A DNA stretch of 64,000 nt. Origin: Mobula hypostoma. Taxonomy: Eukaryota. The notes below the pieces were generated by a model that ran no database searches, was not told the DNA's origin, and saw only the letters and a program-made list of their open reading frames with translations. Shown piece after piece: positions 4,460 through 64,000 of the stretch (its first letter is position 1; each line of letters starts with the position of its first letter). The stretch spans positions 66,776,001-66,840,000 of the forward strand of contig NC_086108.1 of the NCBI RefSeq assembly GCF_963921235.1. Reading direction: 5' to 3'. The position numbers and the translations under genes are program-made.

Positions 4460-4590
4460 CAAACAAGAGAAAATCTGCAGATGCTGGAAATCCGAGCAAC
4501 ACACACACACAAAATGCTGGAGGAACTCAGCAGGCCAGGCAGTATCTACGGAAAAAAGTACAGTTGACATTTCGAGCCGAAACCCTTCTA
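4460..4590 (-). mobile_element. Penelope-like terminal fragment, truncated inside the hammerhead core
   Basis: Same tail as the 34988 and 40562 copies. Minus strand reads GAAGGGTTTCGGCTCGAAATGTCAACTGT, lacking the upstream CUGA. Confidence 0.7.
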
Positions 4591-8862: not shown

Positions 8863-9001
8863 CATAAACACAAGAGATTCTGTATATGCTGGAAAACTAG
8901 AGTAACACACACAAAATGAGAGAGGAACTCAGCAGGTCAGACAGCATCTATGGAATGGAATAAAGAGTCAAGGTTTCTGGCTGAGGCCCTTCATCTAGAC
9001 T
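8863..9001 (-). mobile_element. Penelope-like terminal fragment with degenerate hammerhead core
   Basis: Minus strand reads GTC-TAGATGA-AGGGCCTCAGCCA-GAAACCTT-GAC, followed by the family tail. Confidence 0.7.
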
Positions 9002-10894
9002 CAGCAATCAAGGGGAAATGCAATAATATGTATAATAAATGTATAATGATAAGTGGCTGGCTGCCTTAAGTCATGGCACTGCGCTACCAGAGCCTCTGAT
9101 ATTGTTTCCCTGTTGCTATCATTGAACAGAACAGAGTTTGCCCATTGGTTAGCTCACTTCATCTTCTTAATCATTCTGATACACAGAGAAAAAGATCAGA
9201 CTGACAGCATTTTCTGAAGACAAATCCGAATTCAAATTGTGGTCAGTACTCAGAAAGCTCGATGTCACTATCACGTGACTTCAAGCAACTCTGGATAAAC
9301 CCACACAAGCAGATTGCAGGTGTAAATCAGCAAATGTGCCTTTTGCTTGGAGTGGGTTTAAAAAAAAGTTTAGGTAACTTTCTTCGTCCTACTTAAGGTG
9401 AACAGTGAAATGTTCTATAAGATGAACCTTCAATGTAGAGGAAGTCTGGGTAAAAAGATGCTTTCATTAAATTATTGCTCTCAAAAAAGCCTCCTTCATC
9501 AATGTCTTCAAACTGTCAGATAATTCTAAGTCATGTCCATTTACATCTTCTGTAGAAGAGAAAGTGACCTAGACAGTTCCACAAGATTAACTCAATTATT
9601 ACAACCAGCTATTAAGTATTAACTCTCGGGAGTTGACTTAAACCTGCTTACAGAGTCCACTTAGAGGGAGGAGGGGGAGGGGAAAGAGAACATGAATCTT
9701 TATTTTTCCTTTGGGTTTATATTTAGCATATTCACAAGAAAAGTATTTTGAATTGAATGTACAATTGCAAAATTAGTCTGCTGCAAAGTTCTGAAGATAT
9801 GCTTCAAGAAAAACAGTATATACAGTATTTAGTTTAAGAGTCAACTTTTTCAAAGAGGCTTCTTTTAACTACAAAGCATGAAAGCCCTTTTGTGTTCAAG
9901 TCACTGCTGTATCAGATGAGGAAGGTGCATGGAGAGAAACTCTTGTCTGTTCTAATGATATTTCAGCTTCTCACACTGCGATTGCTACTTAAAGCAACAA
10001 ACACACGATCACAGGAACAAAGAATTGACTGATCAGTTTTAAAAAATTAGTAAACCTGGTAAAGTCAATTTTTCACACAGAGCAGGGGGCGGGGAGGGAA
10101 TGGGGGCAGTATATCCTCAAATTATTCAGCACATAGCCTCCTGACTGGTGTGATCTTTCACCCTTTGACCCTGAAGCTAAACGAGCTGGGGATCTGTGTG
10201 ACAAACCTGACTAAAATGCAATGAAGTAAAGCAACACTGAATGCCCTGAAGATTCAGTTCCAATCTTGAATCACATTTGATGTTTTCTGGCGAAGAGCAG
10301 AGAACATCTTTTCACCCACTTACAATCCTTGCAAATTACGTAACTGATACCAGAAACTTGTGGTGAAGTTGACTCTGATCACTGACTAGAAGCACAGTGC
10401 ACTGATTCATTTCAACATTCACCTATGAATTAATCTCTGGTAAATAATATACCCATGTAACAGAGTCAATACAACATGCTCCAGCTGTCTCCAAAATTCA
10501 TTTCACTGACCTCAGGTTTTTTCTTTGGCATTGGTCTAGTTGGTTTCGCTCAGTTTCTTTGTGCAATTTTCCCTGAGATCATCACAATTATGAATGAACA
10601 TTTCACTCAGTGCTAACTCAGAGTCTGGGACGGTCTGCACTAGTTTATAACAATAATTGTTTCAGAAGCAGATGCTATCCATAGAACTGGCTACAACTCC
10701 AAGGAAAATTACTTCATAATGTGAATGTCTCCTTTCAATATTCCAGATGCAAGGTCACTGCCGCCTCAGTGGTTGAGCTCTCAAGACATTGTTCACTCAG
10801 TCACTGAAGCACTGAAGAGGATGAGCGTAAACTTGTGGTGCTGTTGGGTTCCCTGACTGCAAAACCCTAAACATATAGATATCTATCAGCATAT

Positions 10895-34300: not shown

Positions 34301-34987
34301 ATAATGCACATTGTTTAGGGGAAGACATAAAGCACAATAAAGCAGTCAACCTAGGTAGTAGCAGGTCCAGCAAATATTGGCTCCTGATGTGAATGTGAAT
34401 ATCCTTGTAGTTTCTCTCTCAAAAACACCTATTCTTGGGCGTTTCTGTGAGGATTGCTGTTTCTCTGATGAAACAGAGCGCTAGCAATGACAAAATTGTG
34501 TTCCAACACTTTGTTAGGATGAATATACTGTGGTTGCTTGGTTTCCCCATTCCCTTCTTCAAAATTGCACCTTTCCAAAGATTTCTCTTCCTACTGACTT
34601 TTGGTACTCTGGGGAGGATGAATGACTTGCTGTTGGAGAGGTGTTCATATTGTTCAGAGAAAGCCAACAGACTGAGATCACTGAGAAAAATGGTGAAGAG
34701 TGGTGTCAGAATAGCAGCTTGGAATATCATCAGCTGTTACCAATAGCAACAATGGTGTTCAATACAGCAGCGAACTTTAAATCATCATTGCTGCTCAGGG
34801 AATTAATGATTACACCATTCACAAAATAGTAAGTCTGCCAAGTGCAGATCCTCCAAGGAAAGATGCATGGCAAATATACTGAGTAAATTGTGCTGAGGTA
34901 GAGAGGTATTGTTTCACTGCAAACACAATAATAACATTGAGCATGTTCTGGGACTCACCCTGACGAAAACCAACATGTTTTCATGAA

Positions 34988-35086
34988 ACAACATACATCA
35001 AAGTTGCTGGTGAACGCAGCAGGCCAGGCAGCATCTATAGGAAGAGGCGCAGTCGACGTTTCAGGCCGAGACCCTTCGTCAGGAGG
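34988..35086 (-). mobile_element. 99-bp Penelope-derived insertion carrying a hammerhead core
   Basis: 11-bp TSD GTTTTCATGAA (34977-34987 and 35087-35097). Nearly identical to 40562-40661. Confidence 0.88.
35051..35084 (-). ncRNA. Minimal type I hammerhead ribozyme motif
   Basis: TC-CTGACGA-AGGGTCTCGGCCT-GAAAC-GTC^GACT: intact core, short stem II, palindromic ACGU helix III. Predicted cut between 35055 and 35054. Helix I is only 2 bp. Confidence 0.75.
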
Positions 35087-35697
35087 GTTTTCATGAATAT
35101 GTTACACTTCAAACAGACAATCTACTTGCTAGTGAGTGGGAGTAGCCCATTTGATCAAAATCAAATATTAAATAATTGCAATTTCATTTCACCTCTTTCC
35201 CTACGTTTTCATTTCATTTTATTTCAATAGATTGACTTCAAGAAGTAATTCAATTTGGTTGACATTAGAAATAACAGAGTAATATCTTTTTTAGAGAAGT
35301 TTTTTGTATGAGTTCTTCAACTGAAAAACTTCTCTTTATTGATTAAATAATCAATACCTATCAGAAGAATTATATTATAATAATGCCTAATAATAATACC
35401 TGAAAGTAGTTGATTTGAAAACCTTTTCTCAAATTAAACTCTTGGAGACAAGGATTATGGATTCATTAAAATGGATCTGATTGAAAGGGTGACCATCAAC
35501 CGCTGTTTACTCACCTGTAGAACACAGCCATATGGGAGGGCTTGTTTAAAGAATAGAGCATTGGACATCAACATCACCAATACATGACCCTATGACTGCA
35601 CATCTTTAAGAACTGGGAATGGACAGAATGACAAAGTGTTTTCAACTATTTGCTGAGTGAGTCAAGACCCCTGAGGGATAGGGATCATTCTACATAC

Positions 35698-35872
35698 CTG
35701 CTCCAAATGCAAAGAAAAAACTTTTATCTGGGTTTGCCTCCAGAAGCTCTGTCACCCTCTTGCCCATTCTTTCATTTCTTTTGTAGATTAACTCTTGGCG
35801 AAAATAGTTGTCTATCTCCTGAGCTGTCACCTGCTCGTGCGGCGGAAGGGTGGTGTTGATAAAGTTAGGCAG
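35698..35872 (-). CDS. TRABD2B: Internal coding exon (175 bp, phase 0 to phase 1) of a Tiki-family TraB-domain metalloprotease, TIKI2-like
   Basis: Translates to [58 protein letters not shown](G). This matches the recalled TraB/Tiki motifs (RNERM, FFAFGAGH), and the N-terminal part is closer to TRABD2B than TRABD2A. Canonical acceptor (ttctattcacag|CTG) and donor (GCAG|gtatgt). Confidence 0.92.
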
Positions 35873-36616
35873 CTGTGAATAGAACAAGCCAAGTGATTAT
35901 TATTGTGAGAATGGCTGCTAGATACATATGACAGAAAATACAGAATCAAATGCTTTACTGATGAGATAAGATGGATTTGCTTAAATTGAGTTGAGGTGAA
36001 AGAATCTTTTAGCTGCTAAACCATTCTGGTAATTTTGACTTGTTTACTTTAAAGTGCTGTTGGAGTTAAAAAAAAATCTGATTTTCTATAAAATTATTTG
36101 GAGCTCCCCAGTCCCTATATACTTATAAAGCAAGAAGACATCTTGCTTATGCAAAGTTGGAGGATCTCAGCTGAATAATCATTAGTGACATTATATTTGG
36201 GGGTGTGCATCAGAGAAGGTTGGGATGGCCCTTGGTGGTGATGTACCTGTAACCCACAAGACTCTTGGCCTAGATTAATCCACCATTTAGGCAAAATATC
36301 AGGCTGGATTAGCATTTAGCTGGATAGACTGCTAAAATGCTCAGGAATGGAAAGAACAAAGAGGAAGTTGAATAATATGGTGCATGTGGTACAGTAGTAG
36401 AAGGAAGTGAATGTGTCGCAACCCTCGAGCAATTCTCATTGTGGTGGTCTCTGACACAGGTAAGTTTAAAGTAGGCCCAAATGATCTGGGATAGTCATTG
36501 GTGAGGATTCACTGCCAGGAAATTGTCTTATGGCATTTTTATTATGGTTTTGCCCTTTGAAGAGACACTAAACCCCGATCTACGCATCTATTATGGACTG
36601 CTGTCTGCTATACTCA

Positions 36617-37178
36617 CAGACATCCCACCCTGCAAAAGCTCATTTCATGGAGGTAGAACCACCAATTGGCGGCAGACTTCCGGATTTTCCGGGAGAGGTG
36701 GGATGTCTGCAATAGAGTAGCTCCTTAGCAGCTAGCCAGCTAGTTTAAATAACGTTAGCTATGCTAATGAACGAATGACACCTGTTAAACTCACCTCAAC
36801 ATGTCTTTTACAGTCTTAACCCACCATAGGCAATAGAAAAGTCACTGTTGCAAACAGTGCAGCGAGCAACACTGTCATTATTTCTGATCCCTATTAGGCA
36901 GGGGTACATTTTAGTGTAGTCTGGGATGACGTACATTTTATATTTCCTTTTTTTGGAACACTCTGCCATGTTGCACGTTCTCTCTCTCTTGTGGCCACTC
37001 TCGCTCTCGTGGTCTCTCTCGCGCTCGCTCTCTCTCACGCTCTCTCTTTCTCTCTCTCCCTCTCTCTTGCTCTCAAAAAAATTGATTTCCAGGACATTGT
37101 ATATAATTTGCGGGCATCAAAGAGCCACTATTAATATGCGGGAGACTCCTGGAACTTCCGGGAGAGGTGGGATGTCTG
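36617..37178 (-). mobile_element. hAT-like non-autonomous transposon with 6-bp TSD
   Basis: 13-bp TIRs CAGACATCCCACC / GGTGGGATGTCTG, with TSD TACTCA on both sides. Zinc-finger-like transposase N-terminus ARCTVCNSDFSIAYGG on the minus strand; internal (CT)n. Confidence 0.85.
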
Positions 37179-37460
37179 TACTCAGGTTGGCAGTGGCGGT
37201 CACAGCAGAGCCAGGAGAAAAGTGTCAGCACTGTCAGAGGGATCTCTTCAGGTTGCATTGAAGAGAAAGTGTGGGGACTATGTGGGAGAAGTGACTTAGA
37301 AGGTAGGAAATATAGAGAAGGTGGAGTCATGGGAGGAGGATCGAAGGATTTTAGTGGCATATGAACGAACCCACTAGACTGTGGTGCAGCATGTTTAGGC
37401 AGGTGGGGTGGGATCCATTCAGGCTGGAGCTGAGCCAGGGGTTGTGATCAATGGACAGAT

Positions 37461-37614
37461 GCTGCATGTTATGAATAAGCGGCAAGCACCAATCGGTTCA
37501 GTTTCTTGCCATTTTTCTGCTGAATGGCTTTAGCAATTCAATCCATTCATTAATCTTGTTCAGGTCTCACTGATGTGTCTGGTTTTAACTTCATGGGCCA
37601 GGAATTTTGAAACC
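37461..37614 (+). repeat. 154-bp direct repeat, copy 1
   Basis: Matches 38533-38686 with a single mismatch by eye. Confidence 0.9.
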
Positions 37615-37704
37615 TGTACATTTGCTTTTCTCAGAAAAATAGCGATACAGGACAGTAGCAGGAGGAGTAGGCCTGCACCATTACCTTTACTGCCCTTTGT
37701 ATCT

Positions 37705-38335
37705 AGAAATAGAACATAGAAATCTGCATCGCATTACAGGCTTTTTGGCCCACAATGTTGTGCCGACCATGTAACCTACTCTAGAAACTGCCTAGAATTA
37801 CTTCACTGCATAGCCCTCTATTTTCCTAAGCTCCATGTACCCTATTAGAAACATAGAAAACCTACAGCACAATACAGGCCCTTTGGCCCACAAAGCAGTG
37901 CCAAACATGTCCCTATCTTAGAATTTATCTAGGGTTATCCATTGCTCTCTATTTTTCGAAGCTCCATGTACCAATCCAGTCTCTTAAAAGACGTTATTGT
38001 ATCCGCCTCCACCACCATTGCCGGCAGCCCATTCCACACACTCACCACTCTCTGCATGAAAAACTTACCCCTGACATCTTCTCTGTACCTACTTCCAAGC
38101 ACCTTAAAACCGTGCCCTCTCGTGTTAGCCAATTCAGCCCTGGGAAAAAGCCTCTGACTATCCACACAATCAGTACCTCTCATTATCTTGTACACCTCTA
38201 CCAGGTCACCTCTCATCCTCTGTTGCTCCAAGGAGAAAAGGCTGAGTTTACTCAACCTATTCTCATAAGGAATGCTCTCCAATCCAGGCAACATCCTTAT
38301 AAATCTCCTCTGCACCCTTCTATGGTGTCCACATC
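37705..38335 (-). mobile_element. Two adjacent CR1 3' ends
   Basis: A 126-aa ORF2 C-terminus (QRRFIRMLPGLES...TRGHGFKV) plus two AGAAACATAGAA-type tails at about 37705 and 37847. Confidence 0.9.
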
Positions 38336-38532
38336 CATTTACTATTTACCGTATTTACTTCTTACTCCTTCAATTACTTGGCCTCCAAAGTCTTCTGTGG
38401 TAGATTTCTACAGGTTCATGATACTGGGTGAATAAACATTCCTAAACATCTTATACTATTTGCTAAAATTATTTCCTTTGGTTTTAAACATTGAAGCCAG
38501 GGGCATGACCACTCTGCATCCAGCCTCCAGAA

Positions 38533-38686
38533 GCTGCATGTTATGAATAAGTGGCAAGCACCAATCGGTTCAGTTTCTTGCCATTTTTCTGCTGAATGGC
38601 TTTAGCAATTCAATCCATTCATTAATCTTGTTCAGGTCTCACTGATGTGTCTGGTTTTAACTTCATGGGCCAGGAATTTTGAAACC
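38533..38686 (+). repeat. 154-bp direct repeat, copy 2
   Basis: Matches 37461-37614. Confidence 0.9.
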
Positions 38687-38759
38687 AGTACTTTTAATTG
38701 TGCCATTTGGGACAAAAGTTTTTGACTCCTTCGTTTGTGACATCGTCCCTATCAATATA

Positions 38760-39274
38760 CACTCAGTGTCCACTTTATTAGGTATAGAAGGTACATGGTC
38801 TTGATCTTGTTCATGGTCTCCTTCTGCTGTAGCCCATTCACTTCAAAATTTGACATTCAAAGATGCTCTTCTGCATACAACTGTTGTAACACATGGTTAT
38901 TTGAGTTACTTGTCAGCTTGGACTAGTCTGGCCATTCTCCTATGTCCTCTCTCATTAACAAGGCCTTTTTGCTCACAAACTGCTGCTCACTGGATATTTT
39001 GATGCTTTTTTGTACTATTCTCTGTAAACACCAGGAGATCTTCAGTTTCTATGACACTCATACTACCCCACCTGGCACCAACAATCATTCCAATGGTTAA
39101 AGTCATTTAGATCAGATTTCTTCCTCATTCTGATGTTTGGTCTGATCAATAACTGAATCTCTTGACCATATCTGCATGCTTTTATACATTGAATTGCTGT
39201 CACATGATTGACTAATTAGATATCTGTATTAACATACAGGTGTACAGGTGTACCTACTATAGGGCCACCAAGTG
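38760..39274. mobile_element. Tc1/mariner-like MITE
   Basis: Imperfect TIRs CACTCAGTGTCCACTTTATTAGGTA / TACCTACTATAGGGCCACCAAGTG, flanked by TA. Confidence 0.75.
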
Positions 39275-39899
39275 TATTCTTCTATTTTTTTCTACCTTAC
39301 GTGTTGTCAAATCATTTGTTAAATTGACTAGTGTTCAAATGACCACATTCCATCTACTGTTTGGGTAAAGAAGTTCCTACTGAAGCAAACTTATTGATAA
39401 ATCATCCTATCTTTGTGCCTGTTAGACCTTGTGTCCTTTGCTAGTGGTAATAGTTTCTTCATCATTACTCTAACAAGACCTTCCATCATCCTAACATTTT
39501 CTCTTTTTGAGAAAACACATCCCATCTGTTAAGTGCTTTATGGATAGGCAGCTAACCCTGAAACACTCAGGAAATGAGATTCTGGTCAATTTCTTGTTAG
39601 GAGCAGCCAAGCAGTCTGAATGAATATATACGTGTATATTAAAATTTTTAGTAATTTCTCATTCGGTTATTCTTGGTTTGAAGTACTTCAGTTCTGTCAA
39701 ATGGTCCTTTAAAACATAACACTGATACTTAGTGATACACTTGGATGCATTCATCCAATCTTGCTACAAGTGCAGCGACACTGTATGGTTGAAAGTCACC
39801 AAGTAAGCAACACCAAAATCTGGTGGAAATTTGGAAATTTTATCATAAGGCCATAGTGCCCTGAACATTGTGACCCTGAGCTCTTACCTTCCTAAACAC

Positions 39900-40540
39900 C
39901 AAAACTGTTTACAAGAAGGGGATGAGCAGACTCTATTTTCTAAGGAAGCTGAGATCCTTCAGTGTGTGCAACAGGATGTTGGAGATCTTTAACCAGTCTG
40001 TTGTAACGAGTCCAGGCTTCTTTGCGGCTTTATGTTGGGGGAGCAGCATCAGTACTGGTGATGCATAAAGACTAAATAAACTCATCAAAAAGGCTGGATC
40101 TGTCCTTGGCTACAACATGGACGACTCTTTTGAATTAGTGGTGGACAGGAGGTCACTAAGCAAACTGTTATCCATTATGGGCAATCTGGAACATCCTCTC
40201 AATGACCTACTGAATAAGCAGAGAAGTACCTTTTCAAACAGACTCATTCAGCTCTGCTGTCACAAGGATCATTACAGAAAATCTATCCTACCAAATGCAA
40301 TAAGTATATACAACAGTTCATCTCTGTGCGACAGGTGAAAACATATCATAGTACAATAGTCTCTGCTGTATTATTTAGTACATTATTATTGCACATTGGT
40401 ACACTATTGTAATATTATTACTATTTTAGACTCTTATCATTTTGTATTTATTATTAGTTAGCACACTGCTAGATGTGTTTTTAAATGTTGCTGCTGTAAC
40501 GAAAGAATTTCTCACTTGGGATCAATAGTATTATCATTAT
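39900..40540 (+). mobile_element. Rex1/L2-like LINE 3' end
   Basis: KKGMSRLYFLRKLRSF and LLSIMGNLEHPL motifs; 3' end GGGATCAATAGTATTATCATTATT. Confidence 0.8.
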
Positions 40541-40561
40541 TAAACAAATATAGTATACATT

Positions 40562-40661
40562 CAACACACATCAAAGTTGCTGGTGAACGCAGCAGGCCAG
40601 GCAGCATCTCTAGGAAGAGGTACAGTCGACGTTTCAGGCTGGGACCCTTCGTCAGGACGTC
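40562..40661 (-). mobile_element. 100-bp Penelope-derived insertion carrying a hammerhead core
   Basis: 10-bp TSD AGTATACATT (40552-40561 and 40662-40671). Confidence 0.88.
40624..40658 (-). ncRNA. Minimal type I hammerhead ribozyme motif
   Basis: GTC-CTGACGA-AGGGTCCCAGCCT-GAAAC-GTC^GAC: helix I GUC/GAC (3 bp). Predicted cut between 40628 and 40627. Confidence 0.78.
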
Positions 40662-40919
40662 AGTATACATTTTTTAAAGAGGTTATAGTCCTTTCCTGAA
40701 ATAATAAAACTACCCTAATAAGTACATTTGCTAAATGCAGTTGAGTTATATGTCAAAAAAAATTATACTCCTGTGAGCTTTTAGGCTCAATATTATCAGA
40801 GGCAAATGTAAATACTTTTCAAGAGAGGACTACAAAATCTATAGCTTTTGAGAAAGGTAATAAAAGTGATGACTTTAAAAGAGGGACCAAAATCCCAATC
40901 AAAGAGGATTGTCTTAAAT

Positions 40920-41870
40920 AAAAACTGGAACTACTCTGCCACTTGGAATACATCTGTCGGAAGAAAAACAGAGGTAATGTTTCAGGATGAAGTTCCTTCT
41001 TCAAAACTGGGAAAGGAATAAAAGGCAACACACATAAAAGTTGCCGGTGAGCATCTGCAGATATCCTCGTGTTTGTGAAGAAATAAAAGGACCTTGTTAA
41101 ACAATGGGGAGGGAGGGGGAAGGTGATGTCTCTGATACAGTGAAACCAAGGTGACCATGGGGATAAGATGTAAACAAGATTATTTGCTCAATGATTGAAT
41201 GGCAACAGTTAGAGAATGGGAACATGGGGTAAAGAACATAGGCTATGAAATACAGAGGGTCAGTAGGTCACAATGGAAAACTCAGAAAAGTAAAAAGGGT
41301 GAGAAAATAACAAACAAGCTGAGCCAGTATTATAGAAGGGTAGCTTATACAGACAGAAAACAAGTTACCAGCAGTTGTAGACCTAAATATCAAGTACACA
41401 AGACTGCAACATGCCCAGACAGAAAATGATATGCTGTTCCTCAATCTTGTAATGGGTTTCACTGTGATAGCAACATGAAGCCACAGACTGATAGATCAGA
41501 GTGGGAATGAGAAAGGGAATAAAAGTGGCGAGCAATGGGCACATGCCCAGCTGGACCTATTGGGCTTGCCTGCAAACTGCGCATTTCACATCTGCTACAT
41601 TCTTTTGTCTGCTTTGTGCTTCACGTTAACTAATTTCATTCAGACGTTAACCAGATGACTCTGTTTATAGCTTATCCCCATGGTCACTCTGGTTTTACTC
41701 TGAGGCAACACACTTCTTGCTCCATTGACCTGCTCCTCAGTTTCACCGAGAGTCTTTGACCTGAAATATATTTCCCTTCCCACAGATGCAACCTGACCAG
41801 CTGAGCATTTCCAGCACTTTCTGTTCTTATTTGAAACCTCCAGCATTTGTAGTTCCTTTTTGTTTTCAGT
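40920..41870 (-). mobile_element. Old Penelope-like element: GIY-YIG C-terminal remnant plus inverted terminal copies
   Basis: Minus strand 41425-41540 gives PIARHFYSLSHSHSDLSVCG/..ETHYKIEEQHIIF (one frameshift). Degenerate hammerhead at about 40975-41008, and an opposite-orientation terminal copy at about 41740-41860. Confidence 0.7.
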
Positions 41871-58394: not shown

Positions 58395-59690
58395 CATAGA
58401 AACATAGAAAACCTACGACACAATACAGGCCCTTCGGCCCACAAAGTTGTGCCGAACATGTCCCTACATTAGAAATTACTAGGCTTACACATATCCCTCT
58501 ATTTTTCTAAGCTCCATGTACCTATCCAAAAGTCTCTTAAAAGACCCTATTGTATCCGCCTCCACCACCGTTGCCGGCAACCCATTCCACGCACTTATCA
58601 CTCTCTGAGTAAAAACTTACCCCTGACATCTCCTCTGTACCTACCTCCCAACACCTTAAACCTGTGCCCTCTTGTGGCAGCCATTTCAGCCCTGGGAAAA
58701 AGCCTCTGACTATCCACACAATCAATGCCTCTTACCATCTTATACGCCTCTATCAGGTCACCTCTCATCCTCCATCACTCCAAGGAGAAAAGGCCAAGTT
58801 CACTCAACCTGTTTTCATAAGGCATGCTCCCCAATCCAGGCAACATTCTTGTAAATCTCCTCCATCACTCCAAGGAGAAAAGGCCAAGTTCACTCAACCT
58901 GTTTTCATAAGGCATGCTCCCCAATCCAGGCAACATTCTTGTAAATCTCCTCTGAACACTTTCTATAGTTTCCACATCCTTCCTGTAGTGAGGTGAACAG
59001 AACTGAGCACAGTACTCCAAGTGGGATCTGACCAGGGTCCTATATGGCTGCAACATTACCTCTCAGCTCCTAAATTCAATTTAACGATTGATGAATTCCT
59101 TCTTAATCACAGAGTCAACCTGTGTAGTTGCTTAGAGTGTCCTACGGATTCAGACCCTGAGATCCCTCTGATCCTCCACACTGCCAAGAGTCTTACCATT
59201 AATACTATATTCTGTCAATATATTTGACCTACCAAAATGAACCGCTTCACACTTATCTGGGTTGAACTCCATCTGCCACTTCTCAGCCCAGTTTTGCATC
59301 CTATCAATGTCCCACTGTAACCTCTGACAGCCCTCCACACTATCCATAACACCCCCAACCTTTGTGTCATCAGCAAACTTAGTAACCCATCCCTCCACTT
59401 CCTCATCTAGGTCATTTATAAAAATCACGAAGCGTAAGGGTCCCAGAACAGATCCCTGAAGCACACCACTGGTCACCGACCTCCATGCAGAATTTGACCT
59501 GTCTACAACCATTCTCTGCCTTCTGTGGGCAAGCCATTTCTGGATCCACAAAGCAATGTTCCCTTGGATCCCATGCCTCCTTACTTTCTCAATAAGCCTT
59601 GCATGGGGAACCTTATCAAATGCCTTGCTGAAATCCATATACACTACATCTACTGCTCTCCTTTCATCAATCTGTTTAGTCACATCCTCA
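58395..59690 (-). mobile_element. Young 5'-truncated CR1 LINE
   Basis: 177-aa open RT segment (YMDFSKAFDKVPH, QGSVLGP, FADDTK) followed by the C-terminus and 3' tail. Confidence 0.95.
58771..58950 (+). repeat. Perfect 2 x 90-bp tandem duplication
   Basis: 58771-58860 is identical to 58861-58950. Confidence 0.95.
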
Positions 59691-61612: not shown

Positions 61613-61695
61613 TGCAACACATACAAAACGCCATAGGAACTTAACAGACCAGGCAGCATTGGCCCAAAACATCAACTGTTTACTCTTTTCCATCA
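61613..61695. mobile_element. Penelope-like fragment with an internal inversion
   Basis: CAACACATACAAAACG...AGGCAGCAT joined to the opposite-orientation GGCCCAAAACATCAACTGTTTACTC. Confidence 0.55.
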
Positions 61696-63771: not shown

Positions 63772-63885
63772 CAACACATTATAAAATGCTGGAGGAACTC
63801 AGCAGGACAGTCAGCAATTCGGGAAATTAATAAACTGCTGATGTTTTGGGCTGAGACCATTTATCTGGACGAGAAAGGAAGTGGG
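63772..63885 (-). mobile_element. Penelope-like terminal fragment with degenerate hammerhead
   Basis: Minus strand reads GTC-CAGATAA-ATGGTCTCAGCCC-AAAACATC, plus the family tail. Confidence 0.6.
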
Positions 63886-64000
63886 AATATACCAGAATGC
63901 CCCTTGCTGTCATACAGCCACCTTTCCCCTCTCTTTCCCCTCCCCTCAAGTATTTTTGGAACTCCACTTTTGGTGAATATGTCTGTATTCACCAACCTGT

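Follow-up and report, generated by a model that had tools for sequence, protein, structure and literature searches.

A 64,000-nucleotide stretch of the Mobula hypostoma genome, hereafter the window, holds two inserts of about 100 bp that each carry a hammerhead motif. Do they belong to a discrete, very small family of mobile elements, or are they a stereotyped product of a Penelope-like element (PLE)? An earlier note on this DNA had left the choice between the two open. The inserts, copies A and B, and their target-site duplications (TSDs) are arranged as follows.

34988–35086, minus strand: copy A, an insert of 99 bp, 96 nt of which derive from the family; its 5′ end lies at hammerhead helix I and its 3′ end at internal start site 1
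34977–34987: left TSD of copy A, 11 bp, GTTTTCATGAA
35087–35097: right TSD of copy A, GTTTTCATGAA, an exact repeat of the left one
40562–40661, minus strand: copy B, an insert of 100 bp with 97 family-derived nt, 3′ end at start site 1
40552–40561: left TSD of copy B, 10 bp, AGTATACATT, single-copy in the empty allele of X9 and X11
40662–40671: right TSD of copy B, AGTATACATT, an exact repeat of the left one

Copies A and B are real and were inserted separately, and each represents the hammerhead-motif end of a repeat family that is very abundant. The two are mismatched at 6 of 96 alignable positions (93.75% identity), and the nucleotides with no family match sit at the junctions: two at the 5′ and one at the 3′ end of copy A, and three (40659–61) at the 5′ end of copy B. 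Among 20,000 random intervals of ~100 bp, an exact 10-bp repeat within 3 nt of both ends was seen 7 times. For copy B, position 40551 is joined to 40662 in contigs of two related organisms, X9 and X11 (one contig each, with shorter sides of 54 and 70 letters). These contigs skip 110 letters, that is 100 + 10, and ten letters can be placed on either side; they thus represent an empty site with one TSD copy. Copy A was judged to be an insertion by its TSD, the empty-site evidence covering copy B and a further insert, G, described below. The earlier note had claimed two near-identical inserts, each with its own perfect TSD and independently inserted, and had proposed to look for empty orthologous sites in relatives; the claims are borne out, and copy B provides such a site. 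It was also right about Pol III boxes and poly-A tails. Regular expressions for the Pol III motifs found neither an A box nor a B box in A or B, no tRNA was found in them, and their longest A run is 3. A SINE (Pol III) origin, with its boxes, tRNA head and A-rich or repeat tail, was therefore rejected.

The two copies flank, one on each side, an exon of a host gene, and likely sit in its introns, in the sense of that gene.

35698–35875, minus strand: host exon with a TraB/PrgY/gumN domain (PF01963, 30.1 bits, cut-off 26.8), splice acceptor and donor present

A PDB search with this exon returned no matches.

The hammerheads were called by motif inspection.

35055–35082, minus strand: minimal hammerhead core of copy A, with CUGANGA, an unpaired A, a 4-bp helix II closed by G·U, and GAAA-CG-UC
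40628–40655, minus strand: minimal hammerhead core of copy B, same core motif, helix I of 3 bp

The core CTGANGA..GAAACGTC occurs twice in the window, both times on the minus strand, and was absent from 100 shuffles. Both copies have the CUGANGA ... GAAA ... NUH layout of metazoan PLE minimal hammerheads, an unpaired A after A9, a 4-bp helix II and the self-pairing ACGU (palindromic 15.2–16.2), and this core and helix anatomy supports the link to Penelope-type minimal hammerheads that had been drawn earlier. The description of the motif as intact holds for the core, but not for the helices. Helix I, which has 4–5 bp in PLE minimal hammerheads, is down to 2 bp in copy A and 3 bp in copy B because the inserts end within it, and the 10.1–11.1 pair closing helix II is G·U in both, instead of the conserved G–C; two older copies, C and E, carry C at position 11.1. 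With helix I cut to 2–3 bp, both copies are likely inactive as ribozymes. The window gave no Rfam match at the gathering score (around the copies, five sub-threshold matches were unrelated), and the copies, folded singly, are of ordinary stability (z 0.94 and 0.58). A and B both span the hammerhead cut site, with sequence present to either side of it, and ends defined by cleavage are therefore ruled out. The reported ~65-nt tail corresponds to the part of each copy that lies 3′ of this site, with 66 nt derived from the family, but it is not the Penelope 'tail', a further ~38 nt that both copies lack.

Other members of the family in the window show where the copied sequence can begin and end.

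41026–41077: insert G, 52 bp, a 25-nt start-site-1 arm head-to-head with a 27-nt distal-tail (start site 2) arm
4461–4590, minus strand: older copy C, which carries the ~38-nt tail and has its 5′ end in helix II
8863–9005, minus strand: older copy D, tailed, with its 5′ end at helix I and a TSD of 11 bp that is degenerate (9/11 matching)
63773–63905, minus strand: older copy E, with site 1 as its 3′ end, extending ~35 nt 5′ of the hammerhead
61614–61693: older copy F, a site-1 arm fused to part of the hammerhead half in inverted orientation
40951–41862: old head-to-head inverted pair of a longer repeat, arms ~40951–41250 and ~41580–41862

In a profile search of the window, 11 rows with E < 0.1 had their 3′ ends at site 1 (five), at the end of the ~38-nt tail (four) or internally (two); this count leaves out five rows with E > 1, and a reversed-window control gave three rows with E of 6–9. 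Thus, there are two discrete 3′ ends, 30–40 nt of tail apart, as in PLEs of the EN+ type. Related copies overrun the limits of A and B, either by ~38 nt in the 3′ direction or by 35 to at least 175 nt in the 5′ direction, the latter figure coming from the old inverted pair, which serves as the target of insert G. Insert G itself has a 13-bp TSD with one mismatch (41013–25/41078–90), its site is empty in X9 and X11 (65 letters skipped), and its 25-nt arm belongs to the same subfamily as A and B, with the diagnostic bases of that young subfamily. Within 52 bp it shows the published PLE form of an inverted partner with a tail at one end only; its TSD, empty site and one-sided tail are those of an EN+ PLE insertion, and the inverted arrangement recurs in the old inverted pair. 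Since insert G joins the 3′ end of A and B to an inverted piece of the tail, its template RNA was longer than the 100-bp unit.

The anatomy of the hammerhead and of the insertions therefore supports assigning the family to the Penelope type. This identity rests on anatomy, as neither a reverse transcriptase (RT) nor a GIY-YIG domain was found joined to the repeat in the window or in one protein search. Comparison of 246 stop-free frames with Pfam gave no GIY-YIG and three RVT_1 matches, all elsewhere in the window. The protein search with the repeat recovered only an exonised copy, an NCBI-named Mobula hypostoma protein that contains the piece from about helix I to site 1, tail absent. Pattern scans of viral contigs (0 and 0) and of prokaryote genomes (0) were empty; those of metagenomes gave 0 and then 6 loci, which are without BLAST similarity to the copies and were set aside as chance matches.

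How typical are the two ends that A and B share? The 3′ end is sharp: in run X1, loose ends at 40562/40563 are seen in 727 and 171 contigs, whose consensus terminates in tail letters. At the 5′ side, loose ends at 40658 number 697 contigs in X1, 460 in X5, 297 in X9 and 314 in X11, counts that pool stopping copies with all continuing copies, unique junctions being over-weighted in contigs. Internal 5′ positions are absent among the six loose-end rows listed per run, the smallest of which in X1 has 69; a further 1,135 rows lie beyond this listing. The agreement of the loose ends at 40658, a measure read here in an assumed sense, is 0.37–0.41 (0.37 in X1), as opposed to 0.52–0.77 where copies continue in homologous sequence. 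In simulations, a value of 0.37 fits at most ~20% continuing copies, or stops within ~3 nt, and stops dispersed over 20 nt or more would yield at least 0.5. Taken together, the contigs indicate a 5′ pile-up at hammerhead helix I. In the window, the 5′ ends of A, B and D lie within ~5 nt of one another; D is the only test of the helix-I end independent of A and B (1/5 of the remaining copies or arms, those with an inverted junction being set aside). The pile-up is similar in X11, which is nearly devoid of the young subfamily, and this points to a mechanism rather than to a single master copy. The sharp ~100-bp mode that had been predicted thus appears likely, but it does not by itself demonstrate a discrete family, because X11 has the similar pile-up. 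Finally, a few contigs join 40658 to 41025 (3 in X1, 2 in X5) or return over a short distance from 40658 to 40623; the former could be head-to-tail units, possibly co-transcribed.

We consider it probable that A and B are copies of a hammerhead end module, dead on arrival, that a PLE GIY-YIG nickase and RT wrote from a longer, uncleaved RNA. Both strands of AT-rich DNA would be nicked 10–13 bp apart, the TSD being observed and the enzyme deduced. The RT would then begin internally on the RNA, using the first of a pair of start sites ~38 nt apart, and this would fix the 3′ end; the two discrete 3′ ends are observed, and internal priming is suggested by insert G and by a lizard element (below). 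It would read through the uncut hammerhead, both flanks of the cut site being present, and would stop by preference in helix I, at its 5′ strand, where the contigs indicate the pile-up. The product would be without the RNA 3′ of the start site, a predicted requirement of the RT, and without most of helix I, and thus would neither re-transpose nor self-cleave.

As for the cause of the 5′ stop, our preference, evenly balanced at best, is run-off at the 5′ end of an RNA primed on a 5′-proximal copy of the start site in the element transcript. A structure-guided stop or a template jump at helix I is a lesser, though serious, candidate, and cDNA folding gave no preference for a helix-I snap-back; a splice-site effect is unlikely. 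A fixed short first exon is unsupported, the extra 5′ bases being unlike between A and B. The shared start point may mark the beginning of the RNA of the Penelope gene, and we put forward, tentatively, that the ~100-bp inserts, instead of being 3′ ends cut short by truncation, are complete products of run-off that cover the initial ~100 nt of a Penelope transcript beginning on helix I. If this run-off reading were true, the genome would archive a 'strong-stop'-like product in very large numbers, insert G would record the use of both start sites on opposite target strands in one event, and full-length transposition would depend on reading through a tandem, so that the known requirement for partial tandems would be accounted for.

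Of the two options in the earlier note, the stereotyped product is favoured over the discrete 100-bp family, because related copies overrun both ends and the template of insert G exceeds the shared 3′ end. A template bounded by the two ends of the unit, as a self-propagating 100-bp element would have, is at odds with insert G and with the loose ends that continue into the tail. A discrete non-autonomous family could instead have a short master RNA, from helix I to past the tail, copied in trans by a Penelope RT into ~100-bp (site 1) and ~140-bp (site 2) inserts. Non-autonomous PLE derivatives are reported in the literature, the subfamily bases and both ends are common to A and B, the exonised piece has about the same limits, and the subfamily is lineage-restricted, with a depth at 40554–82 of 5.3 million in X1 vs 1,101 in X11. 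We nevertheless regard such a master as improbable, given the pile-up in X11, the helix-I end in the old copy D and the existence of longer copies; the 100-bp unit cannot be the master if the template of G is typical.

Even less probable is that A and B are monomers of a ~100-nt animal retrozyme, derived from hammerhead-cleaved, circularised RNA of tandem arrays. Dispersed monomers are reported for retrozymes, with family consensus lengths of 51–972 bp, and the joints and short returns at 40658 might be seen in this light; yet the cut site is neither the start nor the end of either copy, neither is tandem (the window holds single units and no tandem array of complete-hammerhead units), helix I is incomplete, and a circle would not be expected to give a fixed 3′ end whose tail is optional. 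The least probable account is ordinary random 5′ truncation of Penelope copies, with a coincidental match between the 5′ ends of A and B. Such truncation is typical of PLE insertions, C, E, F, G and the old inverted pair do end elsewhere, and summed contig depth, which we do not take as copy number, declines toward the 5′ end; against it stand the low agreement of the 697 loose ends in X1, below what a spread of 20 nt or more would give, and the proximity of the A, B and D ends.

It is thus likely that the inserts are dead ends produced by a jumping gene of the Penelope type, not a new self-spreading mini-element. Minimal hammerheads that occur singly and stem from Penelope ends were already known in 2014, and as an element the unit contributes little beyond them. 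The value of the inserts is rather that of a test bed, since the genome holds a very large set of them with both ends mappable to the base, and the Penelope transposition cycle has been only partly worked out in vitro. A helix-I 5′ peak, whether or not accompanied by an additional cap-derived G, would reveal the start of the template RNA or a stop of the RT, and G-like inserts bear on the opposite-strand use of two start sites; both bear on the role of the hammerhead for Penelope elements. Our literature search, whose coverage excluded most subscription journals, Repbase and Dfam, found no description of the unit or of the helix-I 5′ peak.

Among known systems, the closest motif is the minimal hammerhead of metazoan PLE pseudo-LTRs (Cervera and De la Pena 2014, PMC4209133). 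According to the available text, most minimal hammerheads are single dispersed motifs 'probably related to truncated PLEs', and they share with A and B the core, the unpaired base between A9 and G10.1 and the palindromic, loop-less helix III. They are unlike A and B in the 2–3-bp helix I and the 10.1–11.1 G·U pair of the latter. The same text places the end of the D. virilis intron at the 5′ end of helix I, but does not describe insert ends as clustered there, unlike the pile-up indicated here.

For the proposed mechanism, the nearest parallel is PAc, the Poseidon element of the lizard Anolis carolinensis (Frangieh et al. 2024, PMC11167929). As far as the accessible part of that study describes it, both strands of AT-rich targets are nicked and extended, the template is uncleaved, and two internal RT starts are separated by an optional 30–40-nt tail; A and B likewise belong to a family with a hammerhead followed by two internal 3′ ends 30–40 nt apart. 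PAc is the single Penelope element to have been examined in vitro; its first start is at +111–118 and RNA is needed to +172, ~55 nt beyond, a stretch whose equivalent is lacking in A and B. PAc, which belongs to another clade, has AC-rich start regions on the RNA, whereas those of the A/B family are UG-rich; the same part describes no fixed 5′ stop in genomic copies, and no ORF is linked to the A/B repeat.

Animal non-LTR retrozymes (Cervera and De la Pena 2020, PMC7229834; Li et al. 2026, 10.64898/2026.07.22.740005) are, in the sections available, non-coding, with a type I hammerhead, dispersed monomers and an origin from PLE pseudo-LTRs (pLTRs), all as here. By definition they are tandem repeats, two units or more, in which the hammerheads are complete, whereas A and B, seen here as DNA, each consist of one unit whose helix I is incomplete; the latter paper samples one chondrichthyan.

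The form of the inserts is that of PLE insertions. TSDs of 8–10 bp are reported for rotifer PLEs. The form with an inverted partner and a tail at one end only has been described (Craig et al. 2021, PMC8557442), and the inserts, at 52–100 bp, are shorter than the pLTRs of 181–218 bp given in the accessible portions of that paper and of Arkhipova et al. 2013 (PMC3846280), with which they share TSDs of ~8–13 bp, head-to-head arms, a tail at one end and solo pLTR pieces.

At the level of the insertion, the two ~100-bp copies under study behave like Penelope-like insertions. The sequences compared were:

34988-35086, minus strand: copy A, 99 bp, with a hammerhead core
40562-40661, minus strand: copy B, 100 bp, with a hammerhead core
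4461-4590, 8863-9005 and 63773-63905: older copies C, D and E
41026-41077 (41013-41090 with TSDs): insert G, 52 bp, 13-bp TSD with one mismatch

The earlier note had claimed two independent inserts, each with a perfect TSD and neither with Pol III boxes or an A-tail, and this was borne out: A and B differ at 6 of 96 positions, their TSDs are exact over 11 bp (A) and 10 bp (B), and neither Pol III boxes nor an A-tail were found in them. Flanking repeats of this kind occurred by chance in 7 of 20,000 random intervals. A search of both copies for a tRNA was likewise negative, and with these three features lacking in A and B a SINE was rejected. A palindrome lies inside both TSDs (8 bp within 34977-34987, 6 bp within 40552-40561) and none in that of insert G; it might fit a nickase that acts as a dimer, or have arisen by chance.

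Contigs of four of the 24 listed sequencing runs were placed on 40380-41220, a stretch that contains copy B and not copy A. A single contig in each of X9 and X11 runs from 40551 directly to 40662, leaving out 110 letters, with a 10-letter stretch that fits either side; this joint is the empty site of copy B with a single TSD. The right junction of copy B is bridged by contigs in X1, which may come from the same source as the window and is not independent, and in X5. Copy B was therefore inserted after the split from the organisms labelled C and E and before that from organism B.

The 3' ends also point to a Penelope-like element. With a profile built on five copies of the window, 11 rows reached E<0.1, and 5 weaker rows were dropped. 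Among the 11 rows, 5 end at site 1, the 3' end common to A and B, 4 end ~38 nt beyond, at site 2, and 2 are internal. In X1, loose ends fall at 40562 in 727 contigs and at 40563 in 171; their consensus is mixed (agreement, the table value for loose-end contigs, 0.44) and its last letters are those of the tail. Such optional-tail 3' ends are the Penelope tail signature. The RT of PAc, a Penelope-type (Poseidon) element of Anolis carolinensis, has two internal start sites with the tail between them, and requires RNA to +172 despite a first start at +111-118 (PMC11167929). No GIY-YIG match was obtained in 246 frames (130 of at least 77 aa window-wide, 116 of 40-76 aa in 33-45 kb), and no RT or GIY-YIG gene tied to the repeat was found in the window frames. 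The copies lack the tandem arrangement required of a retrozyme by the published criteria (Li et al. 2026, 10.64898/2026.07.22.740005; Cervera 2020, PMC7229834).

At the 5' side, helix I is the endpoint of A, B and the older D, and helix II that of C. Homology continues ~35 nt further in E and at least 175 nt further in an old inverted pair, so the ~100-bp unit represents the terminal part of a longer repeat. At 40658, loose ends are seen in 697, 460, 297 and 314 contigs of X1, X5, X9 and X11, with agreement of 0.37, 0.37, 0.37 and 0.41, against 0.52-0.77 where every copy continues into homologous sequence; unique junctions are over-represented among contigs, and agreement would also fall if there were several upstream variants. 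In a simulation that assumes a meaning for agreement, 0.37 corresponds to at most ~20% continuing copies, or to stops within ~3 nt, and stops spread across 20 nt gave 0.51. Among the rows listed (six per run, with 1,135 further rows), none was an internal 5' position. These data indicate a 5' hot spot at helix I, whose size is not given by contig counts. Depth at 40554-82 is 1,101 in X11, where the young subfamily of A and B is nearly absent, versus 5.3 million in X1; since X11 has a similar pattern at 40658, stopping there is a property of the whole family.

Why copies stop there admits three readings. The chances are about even that the RNA begins at helix I and the RT runs off. The 5' junctions of A and B each carry 2-3 bases unlike the family, and extra junction bases are expected on run-off by non-LTR RTs. 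The long copies have an initiator-like pyrimidine run plus CAG at the stop point, a kind of motif common by chance. In addition, PAc in vitro products are reported to be shorter when the template is 5'-truncated (PMC11167929), and PLE promoters to sit in the pLTR (PMC8557442). It is possible, if rather doubtful, that helix I itself halts or redirects the RT, as contig returns from 40658 to 40623 (the two helix I strands; orientation unspecified) would allow, with depths of 129 and 65 versus 11.8 in the flank. An improbable third reading takes the helix-I letters as a 3' splice site: a D. virilis intron ends at helix I, according to PMC4209133, but the extra bases are unlike between A and B and fit a fixed first exon poorly. 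On the boldest reading, which is possible but less likely than not, the inserts would be RT run-off copies of an RNA starting at helix I.

The 40658 to 40623 returns carry 2-3 letters between; if direct in orientation, they would be a tandem of the ~38-nt hammerhead core, the dimer needed by the minimal motif. Joints from 40658, 40648 and 40635 to 41023-41026 (hammerhead end to site-1 start) occur in 5 contigs of X1 and 4 of X5, and possibly represent head-to-tail partial tandems.

Both X9 and X11 contain the empty site of insert G, with 65 letters skipped. The insert is a head-to-head fusion of a 25-nt arm from site 1, bearing young-subfamily bases, and a 27-nt arm from the far tail end; since the tail arm is present, the template of G extended beyond site 1. 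Possibly, two nicked strands were primed at two RT start sites in one event. G is a miniature of the PLE form described as an inverted partner with the tail at one end (PMC8557442, PMC3846280); our literature search found nothing coupling twin priming to the Penelope tail, inverted structure and GIY-YIG. Copy F (61614-61693), another older copy, fuses an inverted hammerhead-half piece to a site-1 arm and resembles an L1 5' inversion. The old inverted pair of the longer repeat (40951-41862, head-to-head) has arms of about 280 nt, with no Pfam coding remnant between them.

A and B lie on either side of a host exon (35698-35875, minus strand) with a TraB/PrgY/gumN domain (PF01963), of a gene that is presumably TRABD2/Tiki-type. 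The sense of this exon is shared by copies A-E, and also by the site-1 arms in F and G. The predicted protein P0005 (NCBI: STARD3 N-terminal-like isoform X3, Mobula hypostoma) ends C-terminally in a translated, exonised young-subfamily copy, which lacks the tail and spans roughly helix I to site 1; thus the family occurs in rays. The window also contains a 168-bp direct repeat (37456-37623 and 38528-38695, 97.6% identity), which encloses about 900 bp with some LINE-like repeat sequence and may be a very long duplication of the target, and a perfect 90-bp tandem duplication (58768-58952, 2.1 copies) adjoining a LINE RT remnant.

Two hammerhead cores, both on the minus strand, are present in the window, against none in 100 shuffles. 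The earlier note had called the core intact, which holds; helix I is truncated. Compared with the minimal hammerhead described by Cervera and De la Pena in 2014 (PMC4209133), the core, the unpaired base and the palindromic helix III are alike, whereas helix I is interrupted by the insert ends, leaving 2 pairs in A and 3 in B, and helix II is closed by G.U in both. Judging from their sequence, both copies are probably inactive. Since both span the cut site, the template RNA was uncut, which agrees with PAc, whose main substrate is unprocessed RNA (PMC11167929).
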